Origin: a virus
Lineage: Duplodnaviria; Heunggongvirae; Uroviricota; Caudoviricetes
Virus record (IMG/VR): IMGVR_UViG_3300008111_001118
Length of the DNA stretch: 64,000 nt
Direction: 5' to 3' (one strand)
A program made the translations under genes and the position numbers. The notes beneath the pieces were generated by a model that did not search any database, was not told where the DNA came from, and worked only from the letters and a program-made list of their open reading frames with translations. This document shows, piece by piece, positions 43,762 through 63,180 of the stretch. Position 1 is the stretch's first letter. Each line of letters opens with the position of its first letter.

Positions 43762-44046
43762 TTATCTGTTGTATTTCAAAAGTGGACAAGCTATCATAAA
43801 ATAACTTAGTTCCGAGGGATTTTCAAAACCAATTTTAATTTTTTGTTTAAATGGTGTTGATTCGCCTAATTCGATAGTGTTACCAACGTAGAATCGGCTG
43901 GAACAGTTTTCGTAGATCCACTCTTCTAATGCCTTGGAAAGATTGTATGTAGGATTAATAACAATCGTTTCGAAATAAGGAGGGCAGAATTCTACCCTCC
44001 TTACCTCAAGCACGTTGAGTGGATTAATTTTATTCTTCTTAACCAC
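43762..44046 (-). CDS. Hypothetical protein
   Basis: 94-aa ORF overlapping the end of the vWA gene. Confidence 0.55.
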   Translation of the reverse strand: MVKKNKINPLNVLEVRRVEFCPPYFETIVINPTYNLSKALEEWIYENCSSRFYVGNTIELGESTPFKQKIKIGFENPSELSYFMIACPLLKYNR

Positions 44047-45328
44047 GTGACTCCTCGTAGTGGGCAGTTACGCCAAACGGTGCTTGCAAAGATTTGTTGT
44101 GGTTACTGTGGATAATAAAAATAGTATCACAGTAAGACTCGTCTCCCCAACTACCGAACGGATATCCATCAGTAAACATAACAAACTTCTTAGGCTGGAC
44201 ATCATTTGATTTCATGTATTTCCAGTTACAGTCGAAGTCTGTACCGCCGCCGCCCATGATTTCATAATCCATAAGCGATTCGCCGCCGTCTGCACTAAAG
44301 TCCTGTTCGTTGTAAACCTTAGTGTCAAAACACCACAGTTTAATACGATAGTCCTTGTATTCGTCCATAATGCCTTTGATCTCACTCAAAAAGTCACGAG
44401 CCTGATCGTTACCAATAGAACCTGACATATCGATAGCAACAGTAATATCGATAGTTTCGTCAAAGTTCATACCAGGAAGAATAGCACCAGTGTGCCAGCC
44501 TTTACGACTAGGACGAGCAAAAGTGTAATCGTTACGAATAGTGCTTTGGATTTGCTGACGCAGAAGTTCGCGCCAGTTCATCTTAGGCTCAGTTAGTTCT
44601 TTGATCATACGCTGGATCTCACCAGGAGTGTTGCCAGCACCTGCACTCTGTGCAGCATTGATCATTGCTTCTTTGATTTCGTCCTTGATTGCATCAAGTT
44701 CGGCCTTGGTCAGTCTAGGACGACCTTTGCCCGAGCCATTGCCTTCTTTGCCATCACCTTCTTCATCGCCTGCTTCCCAGTCAATGTGTTCGTCAAGCAG
44801 TTCGCCAAGAGCATCAAAGTCGATCTTATGAGCGTTCTTGAACAGATCGTCATAGACTTCTTCTGAAGTCCACTTATCATACTTGAAGTCTTGATAGCAA
44901 TCAACTACACGAGGCTTTTGACCAATCTTGTCACGAACAAGAAGGTTGTTAACAATGTAGTCTGCAGAGATGTTGTAAAGCATTGGATCACGATCTTCAC
45001 GACGAGTAAGGTGATCGTAAACACAGTGAAGGATTTCGTGTGCAATAACAAACTCAATTTCTTTATTGTTCATTGCATTAAAGAACTGAGTGTTAAAGTA
45101 AAGATGACGACCGTCTGTTGCCGCAGTCATGCACCATTCGTCGGCACTTTCAACACGCAGACGAGTAGCCATACTACCGAAAAAAGGATGCTTTAGAAGC
45201 AAGCCTACACGAGCAACAATAATGCGATCGAGGACGTCTACACGCATACGATCAAGTGCTTCGGGAGTAATGTTAGGATCTGGAGCCCAGTTCTTTTTAC
45301 GCTTGGATTGAGTCTTTTTGACAGACAT
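44039..45328 (-). CDS. HExxH metallopeptidase-like plus vWA domain protein (DUF2201-like)
   Basis: TAATDG, AHEILH, acidic linker, MIDAS-like DMSGS, CFDT, GGGTDF, FTDG. Start MSVKK follows a GAGG SD. Confidence 0.8.
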   Translation of the reverse strand: MSVKKTQSKRKKNWAPDPNITPEALDRMRVDVLDRIIVARVGLLLKHPFFGSMATRLRVESADEWCMTAATDGRHLYFNTQFFNAMNNKEIEFVIAHEILHCVYDHLTRREDRDPMLYNISADYIVNNLLVRDKIGQKPRVVDCYQDFKYDKWTSEEVYDDLFKNAHKIDFDALGELLDEHIDWEAGDEEGDGKEGNGSGKGRPRLTKAELDAIKDEIKEAMINAAQSAGAGNTPGEIQRMIKELTEPKMNWRELLRQQIQSTIRNDYTFARPSRKGWHTGAILPGMNFDETIDITVAIDMSGSIGNDQARDFLSEIKGIMDEYKDYRIKLWCFDTKVYNEQDFSADGGESLMDYEIMGGGGTDFDCNWKYMKSNDVQPKKFVMFTDGYPFGSWGDESYCDTIFIIHSNHNKSLQAPFGVTAHYEESRG

Positions 45329-45352
45329 AGTTAACCTCTTGTTTAGATAGAA

Positions 45353-45380
45353 AGAGTGGGCAGTTTGACCTGCCCACTCT
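45353..45380 (-). terminator. Stable hairpin between the AAA+ and vWA genes
   Basis: 11-bp stem agagtgggcag/ctgcccactct with a 6-nt loop and only a short U-run (ttct). Confidence 0.5.
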
Positions 45381-45392
45381 AGTGTCACCGTA

Positions 45393-46472
45393 TTAGGCCG
45401 AAGCAGCACTAATATACTTGCCATAACGAGCGTGGAACTCGTCAAAGCAATCAATTGCTTCGGGATCAATCGGAAGATTATACTGAGTCAGTGCGAGTTT
45501 AATACCCATAACAACCAATTCAGTATCGAAGTTATCCATCGAGAACCGCATGAAGTTATTGACCATAAAGTCGAACTTCTTGTCGTTCTTGTCAGATGCT
45601 TCTTTAAGTTCGTAGCAGAGCGAGACAGTCAAGGAATACATGGCACTGATTTCACGAGTCTTCATCTCTTTAACCTTACCAGCGAGGATTTCGGTTGGAT
45701 CGGGCATAGAACTTGCAATCTTACGGTGAGCCATAAACTTGACAGCAAGACCTTCGCCAACTGCACCTGCAACCAGGTCAGTAGTAGTGCCATCGTCAAG
45801 GTTATCTTCGAGCAATTCGCTAACAAACGACCACGAACGTGGAGTAGCAAACGAACGGCTAGGAGACTTAGGATCAAAGTCGTAAAGGTCCTTCTTCGAG
45901 AAGTTAAGGAAACCTACAACGTCTTTGTTGATTTTGTTGTTAACTGCCCACTGGAACCAATCGTCGAAGTCGACTTTCATTTCAAGGTGGACAAAGCGGT
46001 TAGCAAGCGGAGCAGGCATACGATAAGTAACACCTTTATCTGCTTCACGGTTACCAGCAGCAACAATCATAACGTTATCAGGCAGTCGATAAGTACCAAC
46101 CTTACGGTTAAGAATAAGTTGGTATGCAGCAGCCTGCACAGCCGGAGCAGCACTGTTCATTTCGTCGAGGAAAAGAACAACGTTCTTATGCTTGGCTGCA
46201 AACTCTGCGTCGGGCAGTTCGCCTGGAGGAGCCCAAACCATTTTGCTGGTATTGGAATCAAAGTACGGAATACCCTTAATATCAGTGGGTTCCCAAAGGC
46301 TAAGACGAACGTCGATAACAGGAGCATTAAATTGCTCTGCAATCTGGTGAACAATGTCCGACTTACCAATACCCGGGGGACCCCAGAGGAAGATCGGACG
46401 CTTTTTAAGCATTGCATGACGAATGCTTGCTTTAGCCTTGTTCGGGCTAACAGTACGAGTAAGTTCTGACAT
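45393..46472 (-). CDS. MoxR-like AAA+ ATPase
   Basis: Walker A GPPGIGKS, Walker B LFLDEMN, AAGNR, LANRF, TPRSW. Confidence 0.9.
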   Translation of the reverse strand: MSELTRTVSPNKAKASIRHAMLKKRPIFLWGPPGIGKSDIVHQIAEQFNAPVIDVRLSLWEPTDIKGIPYFDSNTSKMVWAPPGELPDAEFAAKHKNVVLFLDEMNSAAPAVQAAAYQLILNRKVGTYRLPDNVMIVAAGNREADKGVTYRMPAPLANRFVHLEMKVDFDDWFQWAVNNKINKDVVGFLNFSKKDLYDFDPKSPSRSFATPRSWSFVSELLEDNLDDGTTTDLVAGAVGEGLAVKFMAHRKIASSMPDPTEILAGKVKEMKTREISAMYSLTVSLCYELKEASDKNDKKFDFMVNNFMRFSMDNFDTELVVMGIKLALTQYNLPIDPEAIDCFDEFHARYGKYISAASA

Positions 46473-48509: not shown

Positions 48510-49496
48510 TTATTCCTTGGTGTATCTAGCGTTTAATGGCTCTGCATAGAGTGTGGCCTGATCTGCAATTTTTTGCATGTTCCATTTAGCACAAAACTTC
48601 ATAAGTTTCATACCGACTTGACCGATGTCCTTGGGTTCAACACTATGAATACTAGTGTTTATAACTTCTCTAATATGTGTTGGCTGTGCCGATAGATCAC
48701 AAAGTATAACGTTACGTTGATAGTCATCGATAACACGGTGTTCGACACCGTTGTGATCTACCCAACGCTGCAACATAAGATTATTCCAAGCAAAGCCTTT
48801 GCTTTTTTTATCAGCAAATGCTTCGGTAAGGCCTACTTTGTTTTTTGTACCTTTGACACGTACACCGGGATATGCGGAGAATACGTTGTCGCTGGTGTCG
48901 CCGCGCATACACTTTTCAAACAGCATCCATTCTGGGTCGGATGCAGTTTTAACAATGCCAGTCTTTTTATCTTTAATTGGCTTACCTTTGTCGTCAAAAA
49001 AGCCTTCGTGCGTGATAATCATATTTTGAACGCCATTGTACTGTTTCACTTTAGGTGAAATCAACTGTGCAAAGTCGCCATCTGTACTAATAATCACGTG
49101 ACTGTCATTGGGATGATTTTGGATCCATCCAGCAATAAGGTCGTCTGCTTCAAGCACAGGATTCTGAAGTACAGTACAGTTGGTTTTATTAGTAACAAAG
49201 TCTTTAAACTCGTCAAAGATTTCCCAAAACACTTTGTCTTCTTCTGCTTCTCTCGGACTCATAGCATTACGAGTTTCTTGACGATTACGCTTGTATGGCT
49301 GATAAAAGTCTTTGCGCCAACTACGACCTTCAAGACAAAAGACAACGTGGTCGGCTTTAAAGTCTGTCCACGCTTTCTTAATGCTGTTAAATGTAATGTG
49401 TAGAGCCATGCCTACTTTTGTATCGATGTCGCCACGAACAACGTGTCGGGCACGAAAAAAAGTGTTAGCAGTGTCTACAAGAATGTAAGTTGTCAT
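48510..49496 (-). CDS. rnh: 5'-3' exonuclease / T4 RNase H-like flap nuclease
   Basis: YILVD, EADD, STDGDFAQL, RGDTSDN. Confidence 0.85.
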   Translation of the reverse strand: MTTYILVDTANTFFRARHVVRGDIDTKVGMALHITFNSIKKAWTDFKADHVVFCLEGRSWRKDFYQPYKRNRQETRNAMSPREAEEDKVFWEIFDEFKDFVTNKTNCTVLQNPVLEADDLIAGWIQNHPNDSHVIISTDGDFAQLISPKVKQYNGVQNMIITHEGFFDDKGKPIKDKKTGIVKTASDPEWMLFEKCMRGDTSDNVFSAYPGVRVKGTKNKVGLTEAFADKKSKGFAWNNLMLQRWVDHNGVEHRVIDDYQRNVILCDLSAQPTHIREVINTSIHSVEPKDIGQVGMKLMKFCAKWNMQKIADQATLYAEPLNARYTKE

Positions 49497-49945
49497 GATA
49501 CTTCTGATTTGCCTTTTGCAATGGGTACTACATTAATATAGCCGGAACCGCGCTGTGTGTCAAGTCCTTCTGCATTCAACATTTGAAAAACAATGTCTCT
49601 AAACCAACGATCTACAATTTCTTCTTCAGGATCTGCTTCTGTACCATACCCATACAACATTAATTCTTTAATAAAGTATTCATTCCAGTCTAGTTCAAAA
49701 AACCCGTTGCGAATATTTTCTGGATTGATCTTGGTTTCAAGAACAGAAACGTAAGGCTCTTCTTTGCGAGTTGCACGATCTTTAGGAGAAAGACGTGCTA
49801 ATTCTGCTTCTTCTTCGGCTTTTATTCTTTCAACTGTAAGTCGTTGTAATTCTTCTTCTTCTTTTATTCGTTTTGTTTCTGCTTCGATAGCAGCGGCTTC
49901 AATGGCTGCAACACCTGTTATTTTTTTGAGCCAATTTTTTACCAT
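49493..49945 (-). CDS. Hypothetical protein
   Basis: N-terminal coiled coil; FFELDWN. Confidence 0.6.
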   Translation of the reverse strand: MVKNWLKKITGVAAIEAAAIEAETKRIKEEEELQRLTVERIKAEEEAELARLSPKDRATRKEEPYVSVLETKINPENIRNGFFELDWNEYFIKELMLYGYGTEADPEEEIVDRWFRDIVFQMLNAEGLDTQRGSGYINVVPIAKGKSEVS

Positions 49946-50988
49946 CCGATTTTCTCCCAAGGTTGAAAGTTAAACAAATCAAATCTATCAATAATGCCTT
50001 TTGGACTTAGATCGATTTCGTTGCGAATAAAGCGTTCAATACTACGATTATGACCATTGCTGTCAATAAGAATACTAGTTGGCTGTTTAACACCGATAGC
50101 ATAACTCAATTGAATGTTACACCAATCTGCCATTTCATCTGCTACTACGTTTTTAGCAAGCCAGCGAGCCATATATGCAGCACTGCGGTCTACTTTGGTA
50201 GGATCCTTGCCACTAAACGCACCACCACCGTGGGGAGCAAATCCACCGTAGGTATCAACAATAATCTTACGTCCAGTTACACCAGCATCGCCGTCTGGTC
50301 CACCGATAACAAAATTTCCAGTAGGATTGATGTGCCAAACAGTGCGTTCATCAATTAAATCTCCCAATACCTGTTTTACTGCATCACGAATTGGTGCCTT
50401 AACACTGTGATTAAACCCATCACGGTGCTGTTGACTAACAACAATTTGATCGATACGTTTAATGATACCTTCGCGCCTAGCACCATTATACTCAACACTT
50501 ACTTGTGATTTAGCATCGGGCAACAAGAAATTATAGCCATCTAGTCGCATTGCTTTTAGTTTTTTCAAAATTTCATGACTGTAATGAATAGGTGCTGGCA
50601 TCATGCTAGGTGTATGATTACAAGCATAACCAAACATAATGCCTTGATCACCGGCACCAAAATCGTCTGTGCCTAGAGCAATATCAGCACTTTGACTATG
50701 GATTTCATTGTAGATCTTTAGTCGATCCCAATGAAACCCATCTTGTTCATAGCCAATCTCTCGAACCTTATTGCGTACAATTTCGTTGACTTCGTCTTTG
50801 TTTAGATTAAAGTTCTTTACTTCGCCCGCCAACGTAACATGGTTGGTAGTTACAAGTGTTTCGACTGCAACACGAGTAGTAGTGTCACCTGCCTTTAACC
50901 CAGCATCAACGAGTGCGTCTGAGATTTGGTCTGCAACCTTATCCGGGTGTCCGTCGCTAACACTTTCGCTAGTAAAAATATAGTTCAT
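49939..50988 (-). CDS. metK: S-adenosylmethionine synthetase lacking the C-terminal YGHFG motif
   Basis: FTSESVSDGHPDK, GAGDQG, GGGAFSGKDPTKVDRSAAY. Ends FNFQPWEKIGW. Confidence 0.92.
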   Translation of the reverse strand: MNYIFTSESVSDGHPDKVADQISDALVDAGLKAGDTTTRVAVETLVTTNHVTLAGEVKNFNLNKDEVNEIVRNKVREIGYEQDGFHWDRLKIYNEIHSQSADIALGTDDFGAGDQGIMFGYACNHTPSMMPAPIHYSHEILKKLKAMRLDGYNFLLPDAKSQVSVEYNGARREGIIKRIDQIVVSQQHRDGFNHSVKAPIRDAVKQVLGDLIDERTVWHINPTGNFVIGGPDGDAGVTGRKIIVDTYGGFAPHGGGAFSGKDPTKVDRSAAYMARWLAKNVVADEMADWCNIQLSYAIGVKQPTSILIDSNGHNRSIERFIRNEIDLSPKGIIDRFDLFNFQPWEKIGW

Positions 50989-51782
50989 AAATCTTTCCTT
51001 AAATTATTAAATTGTTCTTCAAGCCGCGCAATCTCTTGAACGGTGAGGTTATAACCTTCTGTACGTCCGCCAACCGGCATAAGGTACACAGGGCATTCCA
51101 CCCCCTCAGCACGATACGCTTCAACTGCTCTACCGACTTCTTCAACATCCACGTGATCAGCCACGACAAACTTAAGATAAAGTTCAGTGCCAGTGATATC
51201 GTAGTACTGACGAGCAACGCTAGGCTTAATAGCATCAGACCAAGACTCTCCCGAAACGGATAACTTTGGACTGCAACTAAACGTTGTCTTAAATCTTGCA
51301 CGAGTTCCAAGGTATTCTCTAAACTCATCATGCAACCATTGTGTAGTATTTGTTTCAAATGTAACATTTTTTAGATCCGCCATCTTTGGGTGTTCAAATA
51401 GTTCGATGTATAGTCGTTGCCATGCCAGCAGTGGCTCGCCGCCTGTCATAATAAGATGAACGTCCTGACCGTTATCCATAGTCCACTTGCCTTCGGGCAG
51501 TAAACCTAGCAAATGTTCAACAACTTCATCCACAGTTTTATCCATTACAAGGTGTCTAAATTCAGGATAGATGCTTGCATATGTATCGCAACCAGTATGC
51601 ACCAACGGCAGGTCAGTAAATGTTTTAGTAGTTTCGTGAACACCGTTAGGAGTATCACGTGGCAATCCAAAATTCATGCAGCGAAAGTTACAACCAAAGG
51701 TACGTAGGAATACACTGGGTACTCCTACAAACTTGCCTTCGCCTTGTACACTGTAAAATGCTTCACTATAACGTAATTTCAT
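50985..51782 (-). CDS. queE: 7-carboxy-7-deazaguanine synthase (radical SAM)
   Basis: YSEAFYSVQGEG, VFLRTFGCNFRC..GCDT, TGGEP, FETN, SPKL. The C-terminal PRLH motif is absent. Confidence 0.85.
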   Translation of the reverse strand: MKLRYSEAFYSVQGEGKFVGVPSVFLRTFGCNFRCMNFGLPRDTPNGVHETTKTFTDLPLVHTGCDTYASIYPEFRHLVMDKTVDEVVEHLLGLLPEGKWTMDNGQDVHLIMTGGEPLLAWQRLYIELFEHPKMADLKNVTFETNTTQWLHDEFREYLGTRARFKTTFSCSPKLSVSGESWSDAIKPSVARQYYDITGTELYLKFVVADHVDVEEVGRAVEAYRAEGVECPVYLMPVGGRTEGYNLTVQEIARLEEQFNNLRKDL

Positions 51783-52060
51783 TATCGTAGTAACTCCAGG
51801 CTCACGCACTTGCTGACATATTCAACTACATCTTTATCTTTTTCAACAATGTAAATACTTCTATCACTTCTATCAGTTTTACGATCGTACTTGTTAAATT
51901 CAAGTATTTTGCCGTTCTGTGCATTATAGATACGAAAGTTAAGAATTGGTTCGTCGTCGACCCTGTTTTCAACTGATACTGCTATAAGTCCCTTTTCGCC
52001 CCTAGCAGATTCCCAATCTTCTCTAACCCATTTAATAACTAATTTTTTCAAAAAATTCAT
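51782..52060 (-). CDS. Hypothetical protein
   Basis: 92-aa ORF coupled to neighbours. Confidence 0.55.
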   Translation of the reverse strand: MNFLKKLVIKWVREDWESARGEKGLIAVSVENRVDDEPILNFRIYNAQNGKILEFNKYDRKTDRSDRSIYIVEKDKDVVEYVSKCVSLELLR

Positions 52061-52618
52061 CTTGGTGCAAATCCCTGTTGTAGTTTAATGTTGTCGAAGA
52101 ACTCTTTCTTAACACCGCTGTCTGATTTAAACACACCTTCGAGGACAGTTGTTTGTGTAAGACTGCTATGTGCCATAATGCCGCGATTTTCACAACATCC
52201 ATGAGTTGCTTGTATATACACAGCAACGTCTTTTGATCCAGTTGCTTTGCTAATTTCACGTGCAATATCCATTGCAAGTTCTTCCTGCAATGTTCCGCGT
52301 CTTGCACACCACTGTGCAATCCGAGTATAGTTCGTTTGTATGATTAGGAAATGCTGTAGCATTTGGCATCGGGTAGTATCTGCCTTGCATAAGTTCTTTA
52401 ACATACATTTTTGCAAGACGTCTGCCAGTATCCATGCTGTTAGGATCATTTTTGCGGTCAATTACTAGACTATCTAGTACGTCTTCGAACTTTTCAGTTA
52501 GTTCGTTGATCAGTTCGTCGAGTTCGCCTTCTTTGATGAATTGCGAAATATTATCGCCAGCCCAATATCTTGCACCTGCTTCGTCGATGCGTTGTTTAAT
52601 TTTTTTACTAGTTTTCAT
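52057..52618 (-). pseudogene. folE: GTP cyclohydrolase I broken by deletion plus frameshift at about 52330
   Basis: The N-part has DTGRRLAKMY..AFPN. The C-part has YTRIAQWCARR..LQEE..HGCCENRG..TQTT. The S.CSHH / GLSK zinc-ligand block is missing. Confidence 0.85.
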
Positions 52619-52657
52619 TTCTTCTCCGAGTTATAGAGGGGGTTCTCTATTAATGTA

Positions 52658-52686
52658 AGTATATGTTTTATTTAGATTTTTGTCAA
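52658..52686 (-). promoter_or_regulatory. Sigma70-type promoter for folE
   Basis: TTGACA, 17 nt, TATACT; a TAAATA box lies inside the spacer. Confidence 0.7.
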
Positions 52687-52899
52687 TCATTCTTTGAAAT
52701 ATTTGTTAATTATTTCAAGATGATCTTCGTACTCGGCCATGTGAGCAAGTTCTTTTTCGATAGCATCCATAATATCACTATGCTCGCCCACACCAACTGG
52801 ATTGCGTAGATAAACTTCTACGTTTATGCGATGCTTTTCTATATGTGCTTTAGCATGAGCCTTAACACTTTTAATCATTTCACTTCTTAGATCGGTCAC
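52687..52899 (-). CDS. Small hypothetical phage protein
   Basis: GTG start after AAAGGAG; NPVGVGEH motif. Confidence 0.55.
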   Translation of the reverse strand: MTDLRSEMIKSVKAHAKAHIEKHRINVEVYLRNPVGVGEHSDIMDAIEKELAHMAEYEDHLEIINKYFKE

Positions 52900-53471
52900 T
52901 TTGTATTCTCCTTTTTCAACCAACTGTCTCTTTCCCAAGGGTAAACAAGCCATTCGTTCTTTTCACGCTTGTCAACTTCGTGCCACCAGTAATCAGGTTG
53001 GAAACTACTACCCCAATTTTGTGTCATTGTAGCAAAGCGAACGTTTTCGTGCCAGACACTATTCCACATATCACGTTCGTTGGGAAAACAAGTGCTTTCC
53101 CAATCTTTTTTAATCCAATTAAAAGTGTTGCCTGTATCGTTGATATCATCAACAACAAGAATATTGTGGCGACGATTGATATCCCAACGGCTTTTAGTTA
53201 CTGCTCTTTGTTCCTCGAGAACATACCCAACTGCCATTTCAGGAAGCCAAAGATTACTCTCTGTATCTTCGTCGGGCATACCGTCACGCAATTGTACTTT
53301 AACTGTATGCATAGGAATGCCAATGCGGTGACTTAAAATCAATGCAAGTGGTAATCCACCACGAGTTAACCCAACAACGCATTGCGGCAACCACGGATCT
53401 TTCATCATACAAAGCATGATGCAGTCTGCCGCAGTTTCAAGATCTTGCCAGGTGTAATATGTTTTATCCAT
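52896..53471 (-). CDS. Type I phosphoribosyltransferase (purine PRT-like)
   Basis: VVGLTRGGL, PRPP loop ILVVDDINDTGNT, WLVYPWE. Confidence 0.85.
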   Translation of the reverse strand: MDKTYYTWQDLETAADCIMLCMMKDPWLPQCVVGLTRGGLPLALILSHRIGIPMHTVKVQLRDGMPDEDTESNLWLPEMAVGYVLEEQRAVTKSRWDINRRHNILVVDDINDTGNTFNWIKKDWESTCFPNERDMWNSVWHENVRFATMTQNWGSSFQPDYWWHEVDKREKNEWLVYPWERDSWLKKENTK

Positions 53472-53802
53472 GTTGAACTAATGCCTTTATTGTTTCATAA
53501 TTGTCTTTAGCAGTTTGCAATGCTGGATATTTTTTGCACAGTTCTGCTTCTTGTTGTTCATGTAACATCTTTTTTTCTGCCCACCTCATAACTTCCTCAG
53601 CACGTGGCGAAAAAGACAGGGTATGAGAATTTCCTGTGTATATTGTCCATCTTTTGTTATAACTGTCGTAGATTTCAAAATGATCACCCCGATATCTTAC
53701 CATACCGTTTGATGGATCATTGTCGTTGTCGACAATGTAAGGCGATTGATTTTGAGTTGTTCCGTATAGATAAGAATCGCCCGAATATATATTGTTAATC
53801 AT
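53464..53802 (-). CDS. Hypothetical protein (C-terminal KYPAL family)
   Basis: C-terminus KKYPALQTAKDNYETIKALV. Confidence 0.55.
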   Translation of the reverse strand: MINNIYSGDSYLYGTTQNQSPYIVDNDNDPSNGMVRYRGDHFEIYDSYNKRWTIYTGNSHTLSFSPRAEEVMRWAEKKMLHEQQEAELCKKYPALQTAKDNYETIKALVQHG

Positions 53803-53984
53803 TTTGGATTTTTCTTTGCGTCTTTTTCTGCTCGAGTGAGTTTGTTATTCCAAGTATTGTTACTAATACCTAATTCATTTGCCATGGGTTTGGTTTTGCC
53901 TTTAGTAATCTTACCACCTTTATTAAGAAACTCGTCGATCATAGATTGTTCGGTTGTTTTCTTAGGTTCAGGACCCATTGCCAT
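53799..53984 (-). CDS. Small hypothetical protein
   Basis: 61 aa, IDEFLNKGGKITKG. Confidence 0.5.
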   Translation of the reverse strand: MAMGPEPKKTTEQSMIDEFLNKGGKITKGKTKPMANELGISNNTWNNKLTRAEKDAKKNPK

Positions 53985-54571
53985 TATTTAGATTCCTTTA
54001 AGGTGTCAAATGTTTTATACTTTGCTAATGCTGCTTCGTATTGGTCTTTTAATTCTTTTAGTTTAGGGTACTTGGCTTCCATATCCACATCACGCTTTAA
54101 TAATAACAGAACATCACGCATTTCGTCAAGTTCTTTCATAACGTCTCTGCCGTTTACAATAAGTGGAACGTCAACACGCATACTACCATTAATACCGCCG
54201 TCGATGGTAATAGCACTACTAGATAAATTTGATGTTGTGATAGTAGGCGAATTAATATAACCGCTGCTTGTAAAAACTGATCCCGGCGGCGGAAATTGAC
54301 CTGTATATGATTTTCCAGAATCCCACATCGGATTTCCAGAAGTTACAGAAGAACTTAATGTATAACCTGTATCTGTACTTGTATATGTGCTCATACTTTT
54401 AATCCGATCACTGTTTTGCTCGTATTTCTTTTTTGCTTCGTTTTGTATATCACGAATTTCTTGATAGATATCTTTGCTAGGAGTATAATCAGAAAGGAGG
54501 GTCGTTTCTTTCGTTTTGCTTTCCGTTCCAGTCTTGGTTAACCAATTTGTAAATTGTTTTAAAATTTTCAT
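53984..54571 (-). CDS. Hypothetical protein (Ser/Thr-rich, KYP.L family); start uncertain
   Basis: C-terminus AKYPKLKELKDQYEAAL. The track start overlaps the upstream gene by 83 nt. Confidence 0.5.
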   Translation of the reverse strand: MKILKQFTNWLTKTGTESKTKETTLLSDYTPSKDIYQEIRDIQNEAKKKYEQNSDRIKSMSTYTSTDTGYTLSSSVTSGNPMWDSGKSYTGQFPPPGSVFTSSGYINSPTITTSNLSSSAITIDGGINGSMRVDVPLIVNGRDVMKELDEMRDVLLLLKRDVDMEAKYPKLKELKDQYEAALAKYKTFDTLKESK

Positions 54572-54845
54572 ATGCTTTCTCTAATGCCGGATATTCTTTA
54601 CACATTTCGCTAACCATTGCAAAATCTGGATAACTGTTTTCCCATTCAACAGCCCTCCAGCCCTCGTCAATTGATTCGTCAATTGCATCCCACGTAGTTC
54701 CGTTATGTATGTATAATTTGTTGTCCATTGTGTTTAATTGAATATTGCCAATTTGGCTGTGGCTTATAGTAGACACATCGATTGTAAGATTATTTTCAAT
54801 TAAACTTGATATATCAAGAGTAAAGTTATTTTCGTCGTTATCCAT
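54489..54845 (-). CDS. Hypothetical protein (KYPAL family)
   Basis: C-terminus KEYPALEKAYENFKTIYKLV. Confidence 0.55.
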   Translation of the reverse strand: MDNDENNFTLDISSLIENNLTIDVSTISHSQIGNIQLNTMDNKLYIHNGTTWDAIDESIDEGWRAVEWENSYPDFAMVSEMCKEYPALEKAYENFKTIYKLVNQDWNGKQNERNDPPF

Positions 54846-55704
54846 TTTTACCTACCTCGAGTTTATATTGATCCAAACACATGTCTTCGATGCTTTTAGT
54901 AAGTGTAACAAAGTTACTTAAATTGTCAACAACACTACTTACAGCATCACCTGCTCTACGTGGTGCTATTGTTCTATTTAATTGCTTGCCGGTTACACGT
55001 TCCATAGTATCCAATACTTCTAGTACACTGTAACCTTGATTGCTGCCTAAACATTCGTATGGAGTATTTTGTGGTCCTGCTTCTACTGCTTTTACAATGG
55101 CACTAGCAAGATCAACAACATGAATATAATCGCGAATGCAAGTACCGTCCCTAGTATCATAGTCTGTGCCAAAGATTTTAATTTCGGGCGTTTTTCCAGC
55201 AGCCACCATAGCAGCAACACGAATAAGATGAGTGGCAGCACCCAATTGACGATTAATGCCGTCAGTACCAGATACATTAAAAAATCTAAAGATTGTGTAT
55301 CCATCGGCCTTCTCCTTTATTACATCTTCTGCTGCTACTTTACTTCTAGCATACGGACTTGCCATTTCCCAAGCACTACTGGTACTTGCAAACAGCATAT
55401 GACCAGTTTCAACTCTATCCAGCATGTTTGCAGTACCCATTATATTTACTCGATAGTATTCGGTGGGTTCTCGTAAACTATCAGGTACTACACTTCTGCC
55501 AGCAAGATGTACGACAGCGTCATAACTGCCGTACACCCACTTTGTAATATCGTATGAAGTGTAGTTGTCACAGTAAGCAAGAATATCATTGTATTCGCTG
55601 TGGATATTAATATCCCAAGCATCTACATAATGTCCGTGTTCTTTTAGAATTTTACAAACATGACTACCGATGTATCCGGTTGCGCCTGTGACCAATACTT
55701 TCAA
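54838..55704 (-). CDS. galE: NDP-sugar epimerase (UDP-glucose 4-epimerase-like)
   Basis: LVTGATGYIGS, HLAG, YARSK, RFFNVSG, GTCIRDYIHV, RRAGD. Confidence 0.85.
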   Translation of the reverse strand: MKVLVTGATGYIGSHVCKILKEHGHYVDAWDINIHSEYNDILAYCDNYTSYDITKWVYGSYDAVVHLAGRSVVPDSLREPTEYYRVNIMGTANMLDRVETGHMLFASTSSAWEMASPYARSKVAAEDVIKEKADGYTIFRFFNVSGTDGINRQLGAATHLIRVAAMVAAGKTPEIKIFGTDYDTRDGTCIRDYIHVVDLASAIVKAVEAGPQNTPYECLGSNQGYSVLEVLDTMERVTGKQLNRTIAPRRAGDAVSSVVDNLSNFVTLTKSIEDMCLDQYKLEVGKNG

Positions 55705-56867
55705 TACTTCTTCTCCGCTACATGGTCTCTATAACGATTGCTGTCTCTACGCCACTGTTCGCCGTTGCCTTGCATGATGTCAATGTAACGATCAACAGTA
55801 GCATCGGTCCAGTCGCTAATTTTACCAATGTCTTTGTGAGGACCCTTCAGTAAATTTGACAACTTATGAACAGCATCTTCCTTGCTCCACGGAACATACA
55901 TTCTCGTATGATCATTTGCAAAGATCTCAGGGAAACTGCGATATGCAGGAAATAGAACGTTGCAACCCAATGCATCTGCTTCACTAACAGTGTTACTGGT
56001 CCAATCTTGTAACGCACAGTTAAACAACACACGACTATTGTTTAGAATATCGTAGTATTCGTTCTTTTTAAGATTTTCATAAATCTTTAGTTTGCCTGCT
56101 GATTCTAATGCTCTTGCACGTTCGATATAGCGAGGATTGTTTGAACGTAACGGGCCACCTTGTAAAATAGCAAATTCTGTGTCGTCTGCATGATTATAAT
56201 TTTCAATCAGATCCATAAAAAAGTCGGGTTGTTTTTCTTGATCCCAACGTGCAGCAAATACAACACGATTAGGTCTTTGATAAAACGGAGTAATAGTATC
56301 GACTCTGCTTTGTACTTCTGCTTTGCCAAATGCAAGTCCGCTAACGTTATAAAGTGGCGCACGCCAATTAGCAATTTTCATATGAGCAACCATTTCTTCG
56401 TTACTAGCAAGAACACCAGTAACAAATTCGTTGGTCATTTCTTCGTACAAACTCATCCAACGGCTCATACCCCAAACGTGTACAAAGTCGTCAGGATCAA
56501 CTGCTTGTGCTAGACAACGTACCCAAACCTTTGGACGTTGTTCTGCAGGAATCTGATCCATAATGTACGGAAGCGATTCGATACCGGGTTGAAACATGTC
56601 TTCAAAGAAAACTGCGTCTTCACCAGTTACTTCACCATTACGCATCATCTGTACTAGATTCATCATCTGACTCATACTGAAATATGAACGTCCGTGTGCA
56701 TCTAGAACTTGACCTACTTGGATAGACTTAGTGTTATCAATGGTGACACCGGGCACCGAGATATACTCAATGCCACGGCGTTCAAACACTGTACGGCTCC
56801 AGTCTTCTAACTGAAGTGTGTATCTACCCTCATAGGGCTCTAGCCCCATGTAGAATAGTTTACGCAT
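55701..56867 (-). CDS. GT-B fold glycosyltransferase
   Basis: VVFAARWDQEKQP, QDWTSNTVSEA..GCNVLFP..SFPE (GT4-like C-domain). Confidence 0.7.
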   Translation of the reverse strand: MRKLFYMGLEPYEGRYTLQLEDWSRTVFERRGIEYISVPGVTIDNTKSIQVGQVLDAHGRSYFSMSQMMNLVQMMRNGEVTGEDAVFFEDMFQPGIESLPYIMDQIPAEQRPKVWVRCLAQAVDPDDFVHVWGMSRWMSLYEEMTNEFVTGVLASNEEMVAHMKIANWRAPLYNVSGLAFGKAEVQSRVDTITPFYQRPNRVVFAARWDQEKQPDFFMDLIENYNHADDTEFAILQGGPLRSNNPRYIERARALESAGKLKIYENLKKNEYYDILNNSRVLFNCALQDWTSNTVSEADALGCNVLFPAYRSFPEIFANDHTRMYVPWSKEDAVHKLSNLLKGPHKDIGKISDWTDATVDRYIDIMQGNGEQWRRDSNRYRDHVAEKKY

Positions 56868-57078
56868 TTCTTACCTTCTTATAGTTGTTACGTGCTTTTG
56901 CTCGTTGCCAACCACGCCACTTTACAAAAGCAGTCCATACACGAGACTTTTCGTTGTATAGATTTGCTTCATTCCATTCCCAGAAATCGCCTTTGTAATC
57001 GAGTTCAGTGCGACAAAAATCGCGGAACTCTTCGAGGTCGTTGAAGACTTTATTTACTACCGGATTGGTAATAGCCAT
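56860..57078 (-). CDS. Small hypothetical protein
   Basis: 72-aa ORF coupled to the GT gene. Confidence 0.55.
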   Translation of the reverse strand: MAITNPVVNKVFNDLEEFRDFCRTELDYKGDFWEWNEANLYNEKSRVWTAFVKWRGWQRAKARNNYKKVRNA

Positions 57079-57083
57079 TTAGT

Positions 57084-57551
57084 TTAGTTTCCTTTGTTTG
57101 AGTTGTTAGGATAAAAGATTAGTGAGCCATTTTCTCCATCTTCGGAGACTTCGATTTCTACAAAGCGGCCCGGGTACCTTGCAGAAATTTCTTGATACAA
57201 GTCGTCGCTGATCATTTCGCAACTCTTGTGATTTAGTTCTAAAATATCTTCATTGTAAAGTTTTTCAAGCCAGCGTTTGAACTGGATGAATTCGATGTCT
57301 CTATCATCGTGAAACACTTCAATACGAACTTTAAAGTGGAAGATATGACGATGAGGAACACCTAGGAAACTCACATCGTCCCAGTCGCCAGTTTTAAGAC
57401 GGGGGTCTGTTGCAGCGGCAGGATAAAGATGCACGCCTTCTTTACGAAAGGTTACCCAAATACTTTTAGATGCTGATGTCATACGTTGTTCTTTTTCTTT
57501 TCTTAGGAAATAGTTGTGCAATGCTTCTTGCGTTTCGTTGTCTGTGTTCAT
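57084..57551 (-). CDS. dpdL: QueD-like T-fold protein with LxxxHRHxF motif (DpdL-type)
   Basis: FLGVPHRHIFHF and KSCEMI; lacks the canonical QueD CxxxHGH. Confidence 0.6.
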   Translation of the reverse strand: MNTDNETQEALHNYFLRKEKEQRMTSASKSIWVTFRKEGVHLYPAAATDPRLKTGDWDDVSFLGVPHRHIFHFKVRIEVFHDDRDIEFIQFKRWLEKLYNEDILELNHKSCEMISDDLYQEISARYPGRFVEIEVSEDGENGSLIFYPNNSNKGN

Positions 57552-57580
57552 AATATATAACTACTTTTATTTGTTGTCAA
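57552..57580 (-). promoter_or_regulatory. Sigma70-type promoter
   Basis: TTGACA, 17 nt, TATATT. Confidence 0.5.
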
Positions 57581-58110
57581 CGAATAATTGTGTCTTTTGT
57601 GTACTTTGACCAGTCGGTAAAAGTATCACGATTGGTTAAATCGCTTACAGAATGAACCCAAACGCCTGGGTTAGTAGAACGAAAATCACGATCGTCCAAC
57701 TTAATGCAGGCGTTATAACCAAGTTGACGAATGTACGGAAGTTTAACACTGATCATACTAATAAAGCGATCGTATTCGCTCCATCCTGCTTCAAGAACAC
57801 CTTCGTGATATTTTAAGTCATAGTCTAGTGTAACCCAATAATCTTCTTTTAGCATAAATGCAATAGGATCATGCCATGCCATATATTGATCATATTCAGG
57901 TTGAGTTTGGTCAATGCTAAAACTCATGTTAGCACCAAAGTAGATATGATCAACTTTGTTTTTCTTGGCTAGTTTTAGAATTTCTTCTGCTGGTTGTAAA
58001 CCAACAACAAACAGTGTTTTCATTCCGTGAGCCGAAGTATGTTCGACCTCAGTACCAACAAAGAAGTTTGGCTGTTCGCTTTTTACACCAGTGCTATAAT
58101 TTCGTTTCAT
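57577..58110 (-). CDS. Hypothetical protein in the deazaguanine cluster
   Basis: 177 aa; GTEVEHT, HIYFGAN, PGVWVH. Confidence 0.55.
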   Translation of the reverse strand: MKRNYSTGVKSEQPNFFVGTEVEHTSAHGMKTLFVVGLQPAEEILKLAKKNKVDHIYFGANMSFSIDQTQPEYDQYMAWHDPIAFMLKEDYWVTLDYDLKYHEGVLEAGWSEYDRFISMISVKLPYIRQLGYNACIKLDDRDFRSTNPGVWVHSVSDLTNRDTFTDWSKYTKDTIIR

Positions 58111-58280
58111 GATTTCCTGACCTGATAAATTTCATTCCACACTTGCCAACGTTTTTTGACATAATCGTTGACTTCGTTGTGTGGATAGTTGTTTTGCTTC
58201 ATACTTGCTATTATACGATCTAAATCGCATAATGCAAGATCTAATGCTTCTAATCTTAACTTTTTTTCAAGCGGATCCAT
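58107..58280 (-). CDS. 57-aa hypothetical protein missing from the ORF track
   Basis: MDPLEKKLRLEALDLALCDLDRIIASMKQNNYPHNEVNDYVKKRWQVWNEIYQVRKS fills the gap and overlaps both neighbours. Confidence 0.55.
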   Translation of the reverse strand: MDPLEKKLRLEALDLALCDLDRIIASMKQNNYPHNEVNDYVKKRWQVWNEIYQVRKS

Positions 58281-58482
58281 TTAGAGTTGCTTTCGCACTT
58301 AGTTTACTTTCGATTCTATGTATTTCGTCTTTGAGCCATAACTTCTGTGTTTTTAACTTATAAACTTCAGGGCTGACGTTTTGATTATTAAAAGTTTCCG
58401 AAATGTAAGTGTCTAGTTCTCTGTGTTTTCTTTTTAGTTCTTCAAGATGTGCATTTAGTTTTTCGTCATCGTTGTTGCTCAT
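58267..58482 (-). CDS. DUF465/YdcH-like small coiled-coil protein
   Basis: L..KHRELD..LK.QKL.LKDEI. Confidence 0.65.
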   Translation of the reverse strand: MSNNDDEKLNAHLEELKRKHRELDTYISETFNNQNVSPEVYKLKTQKLWLKDEIHRIESKLSAKATLNGSA

Positions 58483-59940
58483 TTATACTTCCTCAAAAAG
58501 ATTATTAAACATTGTACTAGCATTTACAGTTTTCTTACCAACATTAAGTCTAGTACCAATTACTTGCATCCAATATCTGCTGTACTTTTCGATTGCTTCA
58601 AGACTTTTGGTGCGATCTTTTAAACTAAAAATTTCGTCAACCACATCTCTAAAAGTTATACGATCAAATCTGTCATCTATAAGCATATATGGATATATTC
58701 CGCTATCATACATTCTATTTGCTCGTTGTGTACTTTCAATATGCATCCAAACATTGTGACCCATTTGCAGTGCATACGAAAAACTATCCCAACTAGTTCT
58801 ACCTTCTTTACCTATTTTATTTAGGTCGCCGGGCTTGTAAATACAAATATCTTTCATTTGACAATGCATGGATATTGGTGAATCCTCAAATGCATCCACA
58901 ATGCCATCCTGCACAATACCTTGACTAAACAGTCTTGTATCAGTGGAATACTTTTTATCATCAGCACTAGGACTCATCATGTAACTCCACTTGCCACGGT
59001 CTTCAATTCTTATACTATGATAAACCTGTCCATTAGCAGTTGCAAGGAAAGGACTTGCACAGTCATATGTAATCATAAAGTTTGGATTATGATACTTACG
59101 AACAGCACGTTGAATGTCAGTTAACAGCACTGCCCATTCGAGTTTGCTTGTGCCAAGGAAGTGCATAACATCGTGCATACCTGTTTCTAGCAAGCCATCG
59201 TGTATCATTGCAACAATACGACGAAGTATCAAGTGTACATCGCACATGTTCTGTCCACCCATAGCCCAACCATTAAAGTGAGTCTCTGGATATTGTTTTG
59301 GATCACAGTAGCCTTTGAATTCTTCGTACCACTCATCTGCTTCTTGATGATTGCCACCTTGAAGAACGTTTAGTACTTTGAAGTTACCGCGGCGATTTGC
59401 CATGTAATATTTTGCATTGATATGAGTTGCATCAACTGCATCTTGATATGTTTTAATACCTGATGCAGCACTGGCCTTTGGATCACGGAAAGTCCACGTT
59501 GGAATATCCAGCATCATGCCGTAGTCCATGTATTCTTCCATCCAGTTTACAACTAGTTCACGCTTCTTTTGTGCCTTAGGACAGTTTGGATCTGTCCAGT
59601 CACCTTCCCACAATCCTTTTGCAATTTGAAAACCACCCGAGTCGCCCAGCAACCAACTGTTGTTCCTATCACGGTTACGTAGCATATCTTCTTTTTCACT
59701 GAACTTATTAACGTCAAGTTCGGCATGACCTGCACTATAGAGCGCCCATTTGTAATGGAACGCTCCTTTGTTTGAGTTTAAGAAATTTAACGCTTCTACT
59801 TCACCAATACCTGCAGGAACACGATTAAGATCTACATATTCGCTGTATCGTTGTTTACCTATGAATGTAGCATAAAAGCCACTGATACTAGGCAAAAACA
59901 CTGCATAATCATTTTGTGCCTCGGTTAAATTGCTATTCAT
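58483..59940 (-). CDS. dpdA: TGT-fold guanine transglycosylase (DpdA-like)
   Basis: LGDSGGFQ, MLDIP, VLQG, GWAMGG, HFLG, YDCAS. Confidence 0.75.
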   Translation of the reverse strand: MNSNLTEAQNDYAVFLPSISGFYATFIGKQRYSEYVDLNRVPAGIGEVEALNFLNSNKGAFHYKWALYSAGHAELDVNKFSEKEDMLRNRDRNNSWLLGDSGGFQIAKGLWEGDWTDPNCPKAQKKRELVVNWMEEYMDYGMMLDIPTWTFRDPKASAASGIKTYQDAVDATHINAKYYMANRRGNFKVLNVLQGGNHQEADEWYEEFKGYCDPKQYPETHFNGWAMGGQNMCDVHLILRRIVAMIHDGLLETGMHDVMHFLGTSKLEWAVLLTDIQRAVRKYHNPNFMITYDCASPFLATANGQVYHSIRIEDRGKWSYMMSPSADDKKYSTDTRLFSQGIVQDGIVDAFEDSPISMHCQMKDICIYKPGDLNKIGKEGRTSWDSFSYALQMGHNVWMHIESTQRANRMYDSGIYPYMLIDDRFDRITFRDVVDEIFSLKDRTKSLEAIEKYSRYWMQVIGTRLNVGKKTVNASTMFNNLFEEV

Positions 59941-61249: not shown

Positions 61250-61278
61250 ATTGTATAGTATAAGCCTTTGTAAGTCAA
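61250..61278 (-). promoter_or_regulatory. Sigma70-type promoter for the clamp gene
   Basis: TTGACT, 17 nt, TACAAT; GGAG SD. Confidence 0.65.
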
Positions 61279-62033
61279 CTCTTTTTTCTAATAGAATTGT
61301 TAGATTCAACTGCTGCTTCTAGTGTATTTAGATTTATGTTTGCATTTGCTGCTGTTTTTAGAAGTGCTTGAGTGTCTTTAGGTAAACACATTCCGCCCCA
61401 ACCTCTTGTCTCTTTTTCTATAAATGTATGGCTTTCACCTATACGACTGTCAACACCGACTCCCCAACGCACACAGTCATAGTTTAATCCTAGTGTTTCG
61501 CAAAAATTGTACATTTCGTTAAAGAAACTACACTTGGTAGCAAGAAATGCATTTCTAAAATACTTGATTGCAATAGCATCTTGTGGTGTACAAAGAGAAA
61601 TTTTTATTTCTGGATAGGTATAGGAATAAAAATCTCTCCAATAATCGGTGTTTCCGCCTGCTAAAAAGATGTGTTTTAGATTTCTCAAATCCTCATCTGC
61701 TGCACTAGCCCGTAAAAATTCAGGACTAAATGTAACAGAATGTTCTGGAAAATCTCTCTCGATGTCTTTCCACCCATCTAAGGATATTGTACTTTTAACT
61801 AGTATAGGAATGTGTTTAGGAAGTGTACCGATAACATGATGTACAATACTCATATCGCAACTTCCGTCATCAGTTGAAGGAGTAGGAACACAAACAATTG
61901 CAGCATGTAGATTTTTAATATCTTCGACACGAGTATTGTTAAAATTAGGATCTACTATAGTAATTTCGTGATATAAATTAAATGCATTGTAATAGGCTTT
62001 ACCTACAAAGCCGTAACCAAGTAATGCTATCAT
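61275..62033 (-). CDS. UDP-glucose/GDP-mannose dehydrogenase family protein (short)
   Basis: GYGFVG, CVPTP, KSTI, SPEFLR, KYFRNAFLA, GGMCLPKD. Confidence 0.85.
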   Translation of the reverse strand: MIALLGYGFVGKAYYNAFNLYHEITIVDPNFNNTRVEDIKNLHAAIVCVPTPSTDDGSCDMSIVHHVIGTLPKHIPILVKSTISLDGWKDIERDFPEHSVTFSPEFLRASAADEDLRNLKHIFLAGGNTDYWRDFYSYTYPEIKISLCTPQDAIAIKYFRNAFLATKCSFFNEMYNFCETLGLNYDCVRWGVGVDSRIGESHTFIEKETRGWGGMCLPKDTQALLKTAANANINLNTLEAAVESNNSIRKKS

Positions 62034-62752
62034 GCTGCTATCCTTGCTTCTTGATAAAATTGTAATGTTTCAAAAGTAAATCTCCAGTCAGTTACTTCGA
62101 TACCAACGCCTCTATTGCGTTTTTTAATCTCTTGTGCTAGTGGATAATCGTTTCCGTCTTCGGACATCTTATCTCCAAAAAAGTAAAGTCTATCCCCGCT
62201 TTTAAAATGTTCTAGTATTTGACTTTTATCTTTGCCTTTTTCGTAAATGTCAATGCCAGTTTCGCCACCAATACGTGCTTCAAGGTCTTTGAAGGTTGAA
62301 TTAAATCCATCAACTAGTTTTTTTCTTTCCTGATCTAATTCGTCAAATTCAACATATAGACGACGTTCTTTTAACGTAGCATTTCTTCCTACAACACTAA
62401 AGTTGACTGCACCACCACGTTCTTCGATATGGTTACCTGTGCGTAAAACAAACTTACTTTGTTTTAATTTGCCTTCTAACCAGTGACGTGCGAGATCTGG
62501 TAATTGCCAAGTTGATTGTTTTACAACATTGCCTTTGACTCTTACTTCATTGCCACTGCAATTAAAAATAATACTAACAGCGTTTACAATACGTTCGTTG
62601 AGTTGCTCAACGGTTTTGCTATAATCGCTACCAGTTACTAGATATACAGAATTTTGTTGACAAAACAACAAAAAGAAATCAGCAAACTCAGGATTTATCT
62701 TTCCTCTACTAGGAGTAAGGGTTCCGTCTACATCAAAGATAAATTTATTCAT
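62030..62752 (-). CDS. HAD-IIB phosphomannomutase-like enzyme
   Basis: FDVDGTLT, LVTGSD, ER.G..NFS..GRNA, GG..GIDI, FFGD..GND. Confidence 0.8.
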   Translation of the reverse strand: MNKFIFDVDGTLTPSRGKINPEFADFFLLFCQQNSVYLVTGSDYSKTVEQLNERIVNAVSIIFNCSGNEVRVKGNVVKQSTWQLPDLARHWLEGKLKQSKFVLRTGNHIEERGGAVNFSVVGRNATLKERRLYVEFDELDQERKKLVDGFNSTFKDLEARIGGETGIDIYEKGKDKSQILEHFKSGDRLYFFGDKMSEDGNDYPLAQEIKKRNRGVGIEVTDWRFTFETLQFYQEARIAA

Positions 62753-63180
62753 ATGCTTTTAGATTCCTTTTCTGCGTCAACTACTCTTCGACGTAAATCG
62801 CTACTGCTAAATCTGTGATCACGTTTGTTAAAATGTAACTCAATGCCACGTTTACGACATACGTCTTTGCCAGAAAAATCCTTTTCGCGATATTCTTCAC
62901 CTAGAAATCGTATGTCAATTTCAAACAGTTCTAGTATATCCACTACATCTTGTTCTGTTTGATATGGAACAATTTCGTCTATAAACTTAACAGCATTTAG
63001 TTGAGCATAGCGTTCTACCAATGTTTGAACTGGTTTGTTTTTTTCTGTAGGGCGGTCTATTGTGGGATCTGTTTGCAAGCCTACAATTAAATAATCGCAG
63101 TTTGCTTTGGCTTCTCGTAACATACCAATGTGTCCGGCATGTAACAGATCAAAGGTGCTAAAAGTTATTCCTACTTTCAT
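62749..63180 (-). CDS. Cytidylyltransferase (TagD-like)
   Basis: TFDLLHAGH (HxGH), ERYAQL, R.H.FSSS. Confidence 0.85.
   Translation of the reverse strand: MKVGITFSTFDLLHAGHIGMLREAKANCDYLIVGLQTDPTIDRPTEKNKPVQTLVERYAQLNAVKFIDEIVPYQTEQDVVDILELFEIDIRFLGEEYREKDFSGKDVCRKRGIELHFNKRDHRFSSSDLRRRVVDAEKESKSI

Follow-up and report, generated by a model that had tools for sequence, protein, structure and literature searches.

A GT4-like glycosyltransferase gene accompanies DpdL in phage deazaguanine clusters and may lead to a sugar-bearing 7-deazaguanine in DNA

We analyzed a 64-kb stretch of DNA (the window; IMG/VR record IMGVR_UViG_3300008111_001118) from an uncultured, PA5oct-like freshwater jumbo phage, which carries, wholly on its minus strand, a cluster of genes for the modification of DNA with 7-deazaguanines. 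We propose, with a probability of about one half, that this cluster encodes a DNA-replacement module of the DpdL/DpdA3 type that is extended by a dedicated glycosyltransferase, and that its product is a sugar-bearing 7-deazaguanine. The deazaguanine replacement genes are themselves known; what is new here is that a transferase is joined to a system of this kind. The proposal best accounts for the findings that the transferase occurs only where DpdL occurs, that it lies inside the cluster in six lineages, and that it is lacking in phage phiST, the DNA of which carries plain 2΄-deoxy-7-deazaguanosine (dDG; Cui, Hutinet et al., NAR 2023, PMC10516641). DpdL is a QueD paralogue in which the CxxxHGH motif has become LxxxHRHxF, and it has been proposed to decarboxylate 7-carboxy-7-deazaguanine (CDG; Cui, Hutinet et al., NAR 2023, PMC10516641), a definition that the initial annotation of the window had given correctly. 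That annotation had suggested a glycosylated 7-deazaguanine from the adjacency of genes in this one window; the association of the transferase with the deazaguanine genes now extends well beyond it, and the sugar on the base is what we infer from that association. Every gene that it had listed was confirmed at its stated place, co-directional and on the minus strand, to which all gene coordinates of the cluster and its flanks given below also refer.

We compared the transferase with 50,697 GenBank phage records by tblastn, followed by profile searches. Matches were found in 14 records, all of which are among the 28 that match DpdL, and in each of the 14 the two genes are adjacent or within ~2 kb of one another. 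The profile searches added Phosso and BCSR5 as carriers, so that six lineages contain the transferase: PA5oct-like, ACP17, X1/BUDD, BUCT-ZZ01, Phosso and BCSR5. When five whole records were searched with the profile, each yielded one strong match, located inside the deazaguanine cluster, and BUCT-ZZ01 yielded an additional, weak second match. The transferase adjoins a DpdA-superfamily gene in ACP17, X1, PA5oct and BCSR5, whereas DpdL intervenes in BUCT-ZZ01. Gene order varies between the lineages: FolE, a homologue of the 177-aa protein o177, DpdA3, transferase, DpdL and QueE in ACP17; transferase, tRNA-guanine transglycosylase (TGT), DpdL and QueE in X1; DpdA-like, transferase, DpdL, one small open reading frame (ORF), a half-length short-chain dehydrogenase/reductase (SDR), phosphoribosyltransferase (PRTase) and QueE in PA5oct; DpdA, DpdL and transferase in BUCT-ZZ01; and transferase followed by DpdA in BCSR5. 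In BUCT-ZZ01, a cyanophage of the T4-like kind, the DpdA is a different one, yet the transferase is 72% identical to that of the window, compared with 43% for DpdL and 39% for QueE. Nine contigs of metagenome-assembled genomes (MAGs) also carry the transferase family, with DpdL beside it in seven, and a Bacteroides MAG contig holds DpdL, transferase and QueE together. The initial annotation had proposed the co-occurrence of transferase, dpdL and dpdA across phages as a check; the association of the transferase with deazaguanine genes recurs in six GenBank lineages and in gut-associated contigs. Six of the nine MAG contigs were rejected as bacterial islands, since they resemble jumbo-phage DNA of this clade that had been binned with bacteria. 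As a separate observation, a second, unrelated glycosyltransferase of the GT1 type (447 aa, UTS52035, L002:9010-10353) lies directly upstream of the DpdA gene in the BUCT-ZZ01 cluster and may be a hint of a disaccharide, or of another kind of decoration, in that phage.

The transferase of the window (P0004, 55701-56867) matches PF00534 (E = 2e-6). Its AlphaFold2 (AF2) model adopts a GT-B fold with two Rossmann domains (predicted local distance difference test, pLDDT, 84), and a Foldseek search with this model retrieved the retaining GT4 enzymes GlgM, PglA, MshA, BshA, PimA and SenB (E ~1e-12, template-modelling (TM) score 0.6-0.7); the transferase profile gave GT4 matches in the PDB as well, weak ones only. 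Five residues (R207, E211, K212, E296 and E314) do not vary among 48 sequences, down to 20% identity, and the D288-x7-E296 of the window corresponds to E-x7-E in the homologues of ACP17 (ASD50404), PA5oct (EST35_0317) and X1. Judged from sequence and model, this is a genuine, GT4-like glycosyltransferase, and its sugar donor and acceptor are predicted from context only. For a metagenomic comparison we used 80 related IMG/VR loci, which form a single syntenic clade and therefore count as one lineage. Among these loci the transferase is the best-conserved gene of the module, with 72-92% identity; in the most distant loci it retains 72-76%, compared with 35-46% for the DpdA-like protein and ~52% for a PolB fragment. 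The proteins of the module are acidic by isoelectric point (pI), including the DpdA-like one; since that protein must bind DNA and is nevertheless acidic, pI is uninformative as to whether the transferase binds DNA.

The initial annotation had identified the product of 58483-59940 (P0001, 485 aa) as a DpdA with the TGT fold, and this was borne out by structure prediction, motifs and profile alignment to DpdA3. The protein had no match in Pfam (including PF01702), PHROG, NCBIfam or the Dpd models of PADLOC, and the published DpdA3 was likewise detected by HHpred only (PMC10516641). Its AF2 model (pLDDT 92.4) matched tRNA-guanine transglycosylases in all of the top 50 Foldseek hits in the PDB (probability 1.0, E from 7e-8). 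An exhaustive search with the protein gave 981 cluster representatives, and among 56 homologues of 27-92% identity D100-S-G-G-F-Q, D145xP147, H260/G263 and D293 in YDCASPF are invariant and QGG is almost invariant. We take DSGGFQ, D145xP, QGG and D293 to be the catalytic and substrate motifs of TGT, as known from the Zymomonas mobilis enzyme. D100, S101, G103, D145, P147 and D293 align with the corresponding motifs of ACP17 DpdA3, X1 TGT and the BUCT-ZZ01 and BCSR5 proteins. The family aligned by hhalign with ACP17 DpdA3 at 96.7%, with the annotated TGT of Xanthomonas phage X1 at 96.1%, with BCSR5 QRE00062 at 94.4% and with BUCT-ZZ01 UTS52034 at 93.6%; the alignment with the short phiST DpdA3 was weak (69%). 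The PF01702 TGT domain was not found in five related records, and searches of the PDB by sequence or profile with this protein, the DpdL-type protein or o177 returned nothing useful. On sequence and model grounds, the 485-aa protein is a member of the DpdA superfamily, nearest to DpdA3, and a candidate DNA-guanine transglycosylase whose action on DNA is predicted.

The DpdL-type QueD paralogue (P0002, 57084-57551, 155 aa) matches phrog_17812 (E = 4e-34) and contains LGVPHRHIF, the single occurrence of LxxxHRHxF in the window; H67, R68, H69 and F71 are invariant across the family. It is 56% identical to ACP17 DpdL (E = 9e-38) and 34% identical to CGPG_00067 of phiST (E = 3e-8), with which it has LxxxHRHxF and other conserved residues in common. 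An hhalign comparison with seven phage QueD proteins was weak (E = 5e-4, probability 32%) and placed HRH on HG[HY]; the relation of phiST DpdL to QueD was reported at 99.9% by HHpred (PMC10516641). Its feature neighbours in the Atlas include clusters in which 10% of members have PTPS. In two phages that lack the transferase, DpdL makes up only the C-terminal portion of a larger protein, the N-terminal portion of which has no Pfam match: Vibrio phage Bakedbeans gp176 (383 aa, L097:7215-8366) and Chryseobacterium phage MA9V-3 (293 aa, L099:7431-8312). Between dpdL and the DpdA-like gene lies o177 (P0003, 57577-58110), a conserved 177-aa protein present in 70 of the 80 IMG/VR loci, a 35% identical homologue of which stands directly upstream of DpdA3 in ACP17. 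It had no match in Pfam, PHROG, NCBIfam, PADLOC or PDB profiles, and its Atlas model is poor (pLDDT 0.49), with structural neighbours below TM 0.5. The 'glycosylase' of Phosso, which is positioned like o177, was examined as a counterpart and showed no detectable relation to it.

We compared the cluster with three phages in which such systems have been studied. Like the window, phiST has FolE, QueE, the LxxxHRHxF QueD paralogue and a very divergent DpdA with the TGT fold, beside polymerase genes; it has no QueC, and true QueC was not found in the five records related to the window. In contrast to the window, phiST has no such transferase in its whole genome and also lacks o177, a GalE-like gene and a PRTase, and its DpdA3 measures 259 aa rather than 485 aa. 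ACP17, an Acidovorax phage, resembles the window in that FolE, the o177 homologue, DpdA3, transferase, DpdL and QueE follow one another contiguously, with overlaps between some of the genes. However, it is a T4-like phage of 156 kb with QueD inside the cluster, its transferase is only 24% identical, and neither GalE nor PRTase was matched within the 24.8-kb stretch examined. Expression of ACP17 dpdL and dpdA in E. coli produced no dDG, and the authors suggested that further enzymes may be needed (PMC10516641); the transferase and the o177 homologue lie between and beside the two genes tested. PA5oct, a Pseudomonas phage (Wroclawvirus), has the synteny of the replication block and, in the same order, counterparts of the 485-aa protein (34% identical), of the transferase (23% identical; profile E = 8e-104) and of DpdL (56%), as well as PRTase, QueE and RNase H; folE is absent from the stretch examined. 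The DNA of PA5oct is resistant to five restriction enzymes, which is consistent with a modified G, and END nucleases, which target hypermodified DNA, restrict this phage (END nuclease preprint, PMC12191111). At the place of GalE, PA5oct has EST35_0320 (L001:13416-13934), a 172-aa N-terminal Rossmann half of an epimerase or dehydratase.

The precursor genes lie downstream of the transferase. The QueE-like radical-SAM (S-adenosylmethionine) CDG synthase (50985-51809) matches phrog_2076 (E = 3e-41) and falls far below the cut-offs of all NCBIfam QueE models. Its cysteines follow the pattern CxxxC, an insert of 30-45 residues and a third Cys (TGCD), in the window as well as in homologues including PA5oct and BUCT-ZZ01, whereas QueE of ACP17 and MA9V-3 retains CxxxCxxC. 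A QueE variant with Cx14CxxC is known to us, and we know of none with CxxxC, a long insert and C. GTP cyclohydrolase I, folE, appears in family scans as two overlapping frames (52057-52461 and 52256-52618). The initial annotation had called this gene broken, and an alignment with three relatives confirmed it and gave the cause: an internal deletion of 125 nt at 52329/52330, through which the CSHHH catalytic segment is lost and the frame shifted. In addition, queE lacks 39 nt (13 codons) at 51646 and ~106 nt at its 3΄ end, at ~51020, with loss of the conserved C-terminus. The three deletions fall within 1.6 kb (50985-52630). We aligned to this region contigs with near-identical DNA from four public sequencing runs of four studies, three of which runs may be where this DNA came from. 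The missing 39 nt of queE were present in contigs of all four runs, and in two runs (X2 and X4) contigs had 125 extra letters exactly at 52329/52330. At 51020, contigs of runs X1, X2 and X16 ceased to match and run X4 had loose ends; no contig of the four runs bridged a junction in deleted form. Since near-identical contigs hold the missing letters, the deletions are probably assembly faults or a minor variant, and the phage population has intact folE and queE. Relatives likewise carry an intact folE, and the earlier conclusion that the host would have to supply the FolE step is therefore not supported.

Canonical QueD was absent from the window by three methods (the CxxxHG[HY] motif, the QueD hidden Markov model and tblastn), in agreement with the initial annotation; for QueC, which it had also called absent, the result is a lack of matches when the cluster ORFs were scanned against Pfam and NCBIfam, no QueC-directed search having been made of the window itself. 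In a related 251-kb contig, a canonical QueD is encoded ~49 kb away from the transferase; PA5oct and ACP17 have a QueD as well. The type I PRTase (52896-53471) is XGPRT-like (PF00156, E = 2e-9; phrog_8995) and has an intact phosphoribosyl pyrophosphate loop (VVDDINDTGNT); PRTases adjoin queE in BUCT-ZZ01 and PA5oct as well. MetK, a SAM synthetase (49939-50988), lies directly downstream of queE, has its three Pfam domains and exceeds the cut-off of TIGR01034 (E = 7e-118). This gene, the deletions in queE and the sugar-nucleotide genes described below had been overlooked in the initial annotation.

Next to the transferase is a GalE-like nucleoside diphosphate (NDP)-hexose 4-epimerase of the SDR type (54838-55704), which is short (288 aa) and matches TIGR01179 at E = 1e-60, with 205 bits against a curated cut-off of 262. 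Its GATGYIGSH (GxxGxxG), SPYARSK (YxxxK), FRFFNVSG and RDYIHVVDLA motifs are present. No match to this gene was found in ACP17, X1, Phosso or BCSR5 within the stretches examined. As for the emphasis that the initial annotation had placed on a transferase and an epimerase directly beside dpdL, the transferase half recurs elsewhere, while the GalE-like gene is confined to the aquatic clade. The interval from PolB to the module (61275-63180) contains three sugar-nucleotide genes, identified with Pfam and NCBIfam as an RfaE-II-like nucleotidyltransferase, a phosphomannomutase (PMM)-like HAD-IIB protein and a short NDP-sugar dehydrogenase; these are syntenic in most of the 80 loci and could possibly supply sugar nucleotides for the transferase. 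Like the GalE-like gene, they are specific to the aquatic clade, and together with it they would be in keeping with a dedicated supply of the donor. The nucleotidyltransferase resembles RfaE domain II and is 143 aa long, and the PMM-like protein is of the eukaryotic type. The dehydrogenase has only 252 aa, without the first ~67 model positions and the C-terminal domain, and its short spacing is also seen in relatives.

On this basis we suggest the following pathway. GTP would be converted into CDG by FolE, by a QueD from another part of the genome and by QueE, with MetK supplying SAM for the radical-SAM step. The DpdL paralogue would convert CDG into the base to be inserted, which is 7-deazaguanine in phiST, and the 485-aa enzyme with the TGT fold would exchange genomic guanine for this deazapurine base; the PRTase probably salvages the released guanine into the GTP pool. 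The GT4-like transferase would then add a sugar to the deazapurine, either on the free base before insertion or on the DNA afterwards, with the donor provided through the GalE-like epimerase and perhaps also through the sugar-nucleotide genes upstream, and the end product would shield the DNA from restriction. The sugar step, which co-occurrence alone suggests, is the least certain of the pathway; the other steps are drawn from family membership.

Several points weigh against this proposal. 7-Deazaguanine has no obvious hydroxyl that could accept a sugar; a sugar would need to be attached at N2, at O6, at C8 or at the electron-rich C7, or, if DpdL does something else than decarboxylate, at a carboxyl group or other substituent. 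The nearest folds of the transferase are GT4 enzymes, which mostly act on small molecules, lipids or glycans, and not the DNA glucosyltransferases of T4. The α- and β-glucosyltransferases of T4 are likewise GT-B enzymes of a phage, and they counter restriction by attaching a sugar to a previously modified base in DNA; however, the analogy is functional only, as they belong to another GT family and their acceptor is a hydroxymethyl group on a pyrimidine, which plain 7-deazaguanine lacks. To our knowledge, all DNA glycosylations are on hydroxymethyl-pyrimidines, and the only sugar-bearing 7-deazaguanines are galactosyl- and mannosyl-queuosine of eukaryotic tRNA. In the latter the substrate is RNA and the sugar is on the cyclopentenediol of queuosine, which could not be made here since the pathway is without QueC, QueF and QueA; no sequence relation to these systems was found. 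A literature search found no paper describing a sugar on deazaguanine in DNA, nor on any purine of DNA. The 80 IMG/VR loci represent one clade, and six lineages with DpdL (phiST, RHph_I1_18, Ahp1, Bakedbeans, D479 and MA9V-3) have no transferase anywhere in their records, so that the transferase is an add-on and not a core step. The deletions in queE and folE, if real, would mean that this copy alone could not make CDG. Finally, the chemistry of the base is a prediction for every phage that carries the transferase; phiST, the sole phage with DpdL in which dDG has been measured (PMC10516641), is without it.

One alternative is that the DNA contains plain dDG (or 2΄-deoxy-7-carboxy-7-deazaguanosine, dCDG) only, and that the transferase is co-regulated with the module and targets a virion or host protein, a glycan of the host envelope or another DNA base. 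We regard this as unlikely, although it deserves to be taken seriously: phiST achieves full replacement with dDG without such a transferase (PMC10516641), small molecules and glycans are the substrates of its GT4 fold neighbours, and jumbo phages are rich in auxiliary sugar genes, of which the PMM-like, nucleotidyltransferase and dehydrogenase genes are nearby examples here. However, it leaves unexplained why the transferase is found only in records with DpdL, always within the cluster, in six lineages and in differing gene orders, and why it is better conserved than both the DpdA-like gene and the PolB fragment.

A further alternative, improbable in our view, is that DpdL of the transferase-bearing clade is no CDG decarboxylase and that, as a T-fold variant of QueD, it makes together with the unusual QueE another 7-substituted deazaguanine, for example one with a hydroxyl side chain, which is then glycosylated, by analogy with the conversion of hydroxymethylcytosine (hmC) to glucosyl-hmC in T4. 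This would offer a chemically ordinary acceptor, and it is in keeping with the CxxxC and long insert of QueE, with the identity of only 34% between DpdL of this clade and that of phiST, with the fact that decarboxylation by DpdL is only a proposal and with the failure of ACP17 dpdL and dpdA to yield dDG in E. coli. Nevertheless, LxxxHRHxF and other conserved residues are common to this DpdL and that of phiST, which makes dDG, and canonical QueD is encoded in related genomes, so that the normal route to CDG is available. Very improbable is a module that makes a free nucleoside or nucleotide analogue, with a sugar placed on N9 by the PRTase or the transferase, to act on host metabolism or tRNA: PRTase occurs within the cluster in three lineages and MshA, BshA and SenB use small acceptors, but a transglycosylase with the TGT fold is always present, PA5oct DNA itself resists cutting at G-containing restriction sites, the module sits within a DNA replication block, and the PRTase is equally explained as salvage of released guanine.

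If the sugar-bearing 7-deazaguanine is real, it would be the first case of a purine that bears a sugar in DNA of any source. With a sugar on a purine analogue, the natural chemistry of DNA would gain a further class, and the contest between restriction and anti-restriction a further layer. If the acceptor were C7 of the decarboxylated deazaguanine, the reaction would be the C-glycosylation of a nucleobase, and the transferase a C-glycosyltransferase. Such a product would also explain why the published reconstitution with dpdA and dpdL failed, would identify the modified G in the DNA of PA5oct, which is under study as a therapeutic phage, and would provide a conserved marker gene for genomes of this kind in metagenomes, where the family has thousands of members. 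The broader claim, that at least six lineages and a very abundant clade of aquatic jumbo phages carry a glycosylated 7-deazaguanine through a dedicated GT4-type enzyme that co-evolves with DpdL, we place a little short of even odds. Several cultured phages carry the gene set, and the prediction is therefore directly testable.

The module sits within a replication block on the minus strand that extends from PolB (63184 to the end of the window) to the 5΄-3΄ exonuclease/RNase H (48510-49496). In the IMG/VR loci the order is PolB, nucleotidyltransferase, PMM, dehydrogenase, o246, DpdA-like, DUF465, o57, o177, DpdL, o72, transferase, GalE, a variable stretch, PRTase, o88, FolE and QueE, followed by MetK (sometimes), o155 and RNase H. 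The small genes of the window between these are a DUF465 protein of 71 aa (58267-58482; PF04325, E = 2e-7), which is present in 41 of the 80 loci; a 57-aa ORF (58107-58280) with tblastn matches in 37 of the 80, in close relatives only; a basic 72-aa ORF (56860-57078, pI 9.5) between dpdL and the transferase, found in 53 of the 80; and four ORFs of 118, 195, 61 and 112 aa (53464-54845) that have no family matches and are patchy among the loci. A megablast search of the cluster region against GenBank phages gave no match. Contigs that encode the identical 485-aa protein reach 263 kb in length, and the region is present in 20 sequencing runs from lake, freshwater and estuary samples.

Elsewhere in the window, an S8 peptidase is split into two ORFs (39511-40122 and 40164-40877), and the record may thus hold further faults. 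The GC content climbs from ~30% to ~38% near 40 kb. The low-GC part (840-39436, ~30%) contains many radical-SAM/SPASM genes, which are followed by a polyamine operon with ornithine-decarboxylase-like and saccharopine-dehydrogenase-like genes. At 44039-46472, also on the minus strand, the genes for a MoxR-type AAA ATPase and a DUF2201 metallopeptidase-like/VWA protein overlap, which is a pairing already known.

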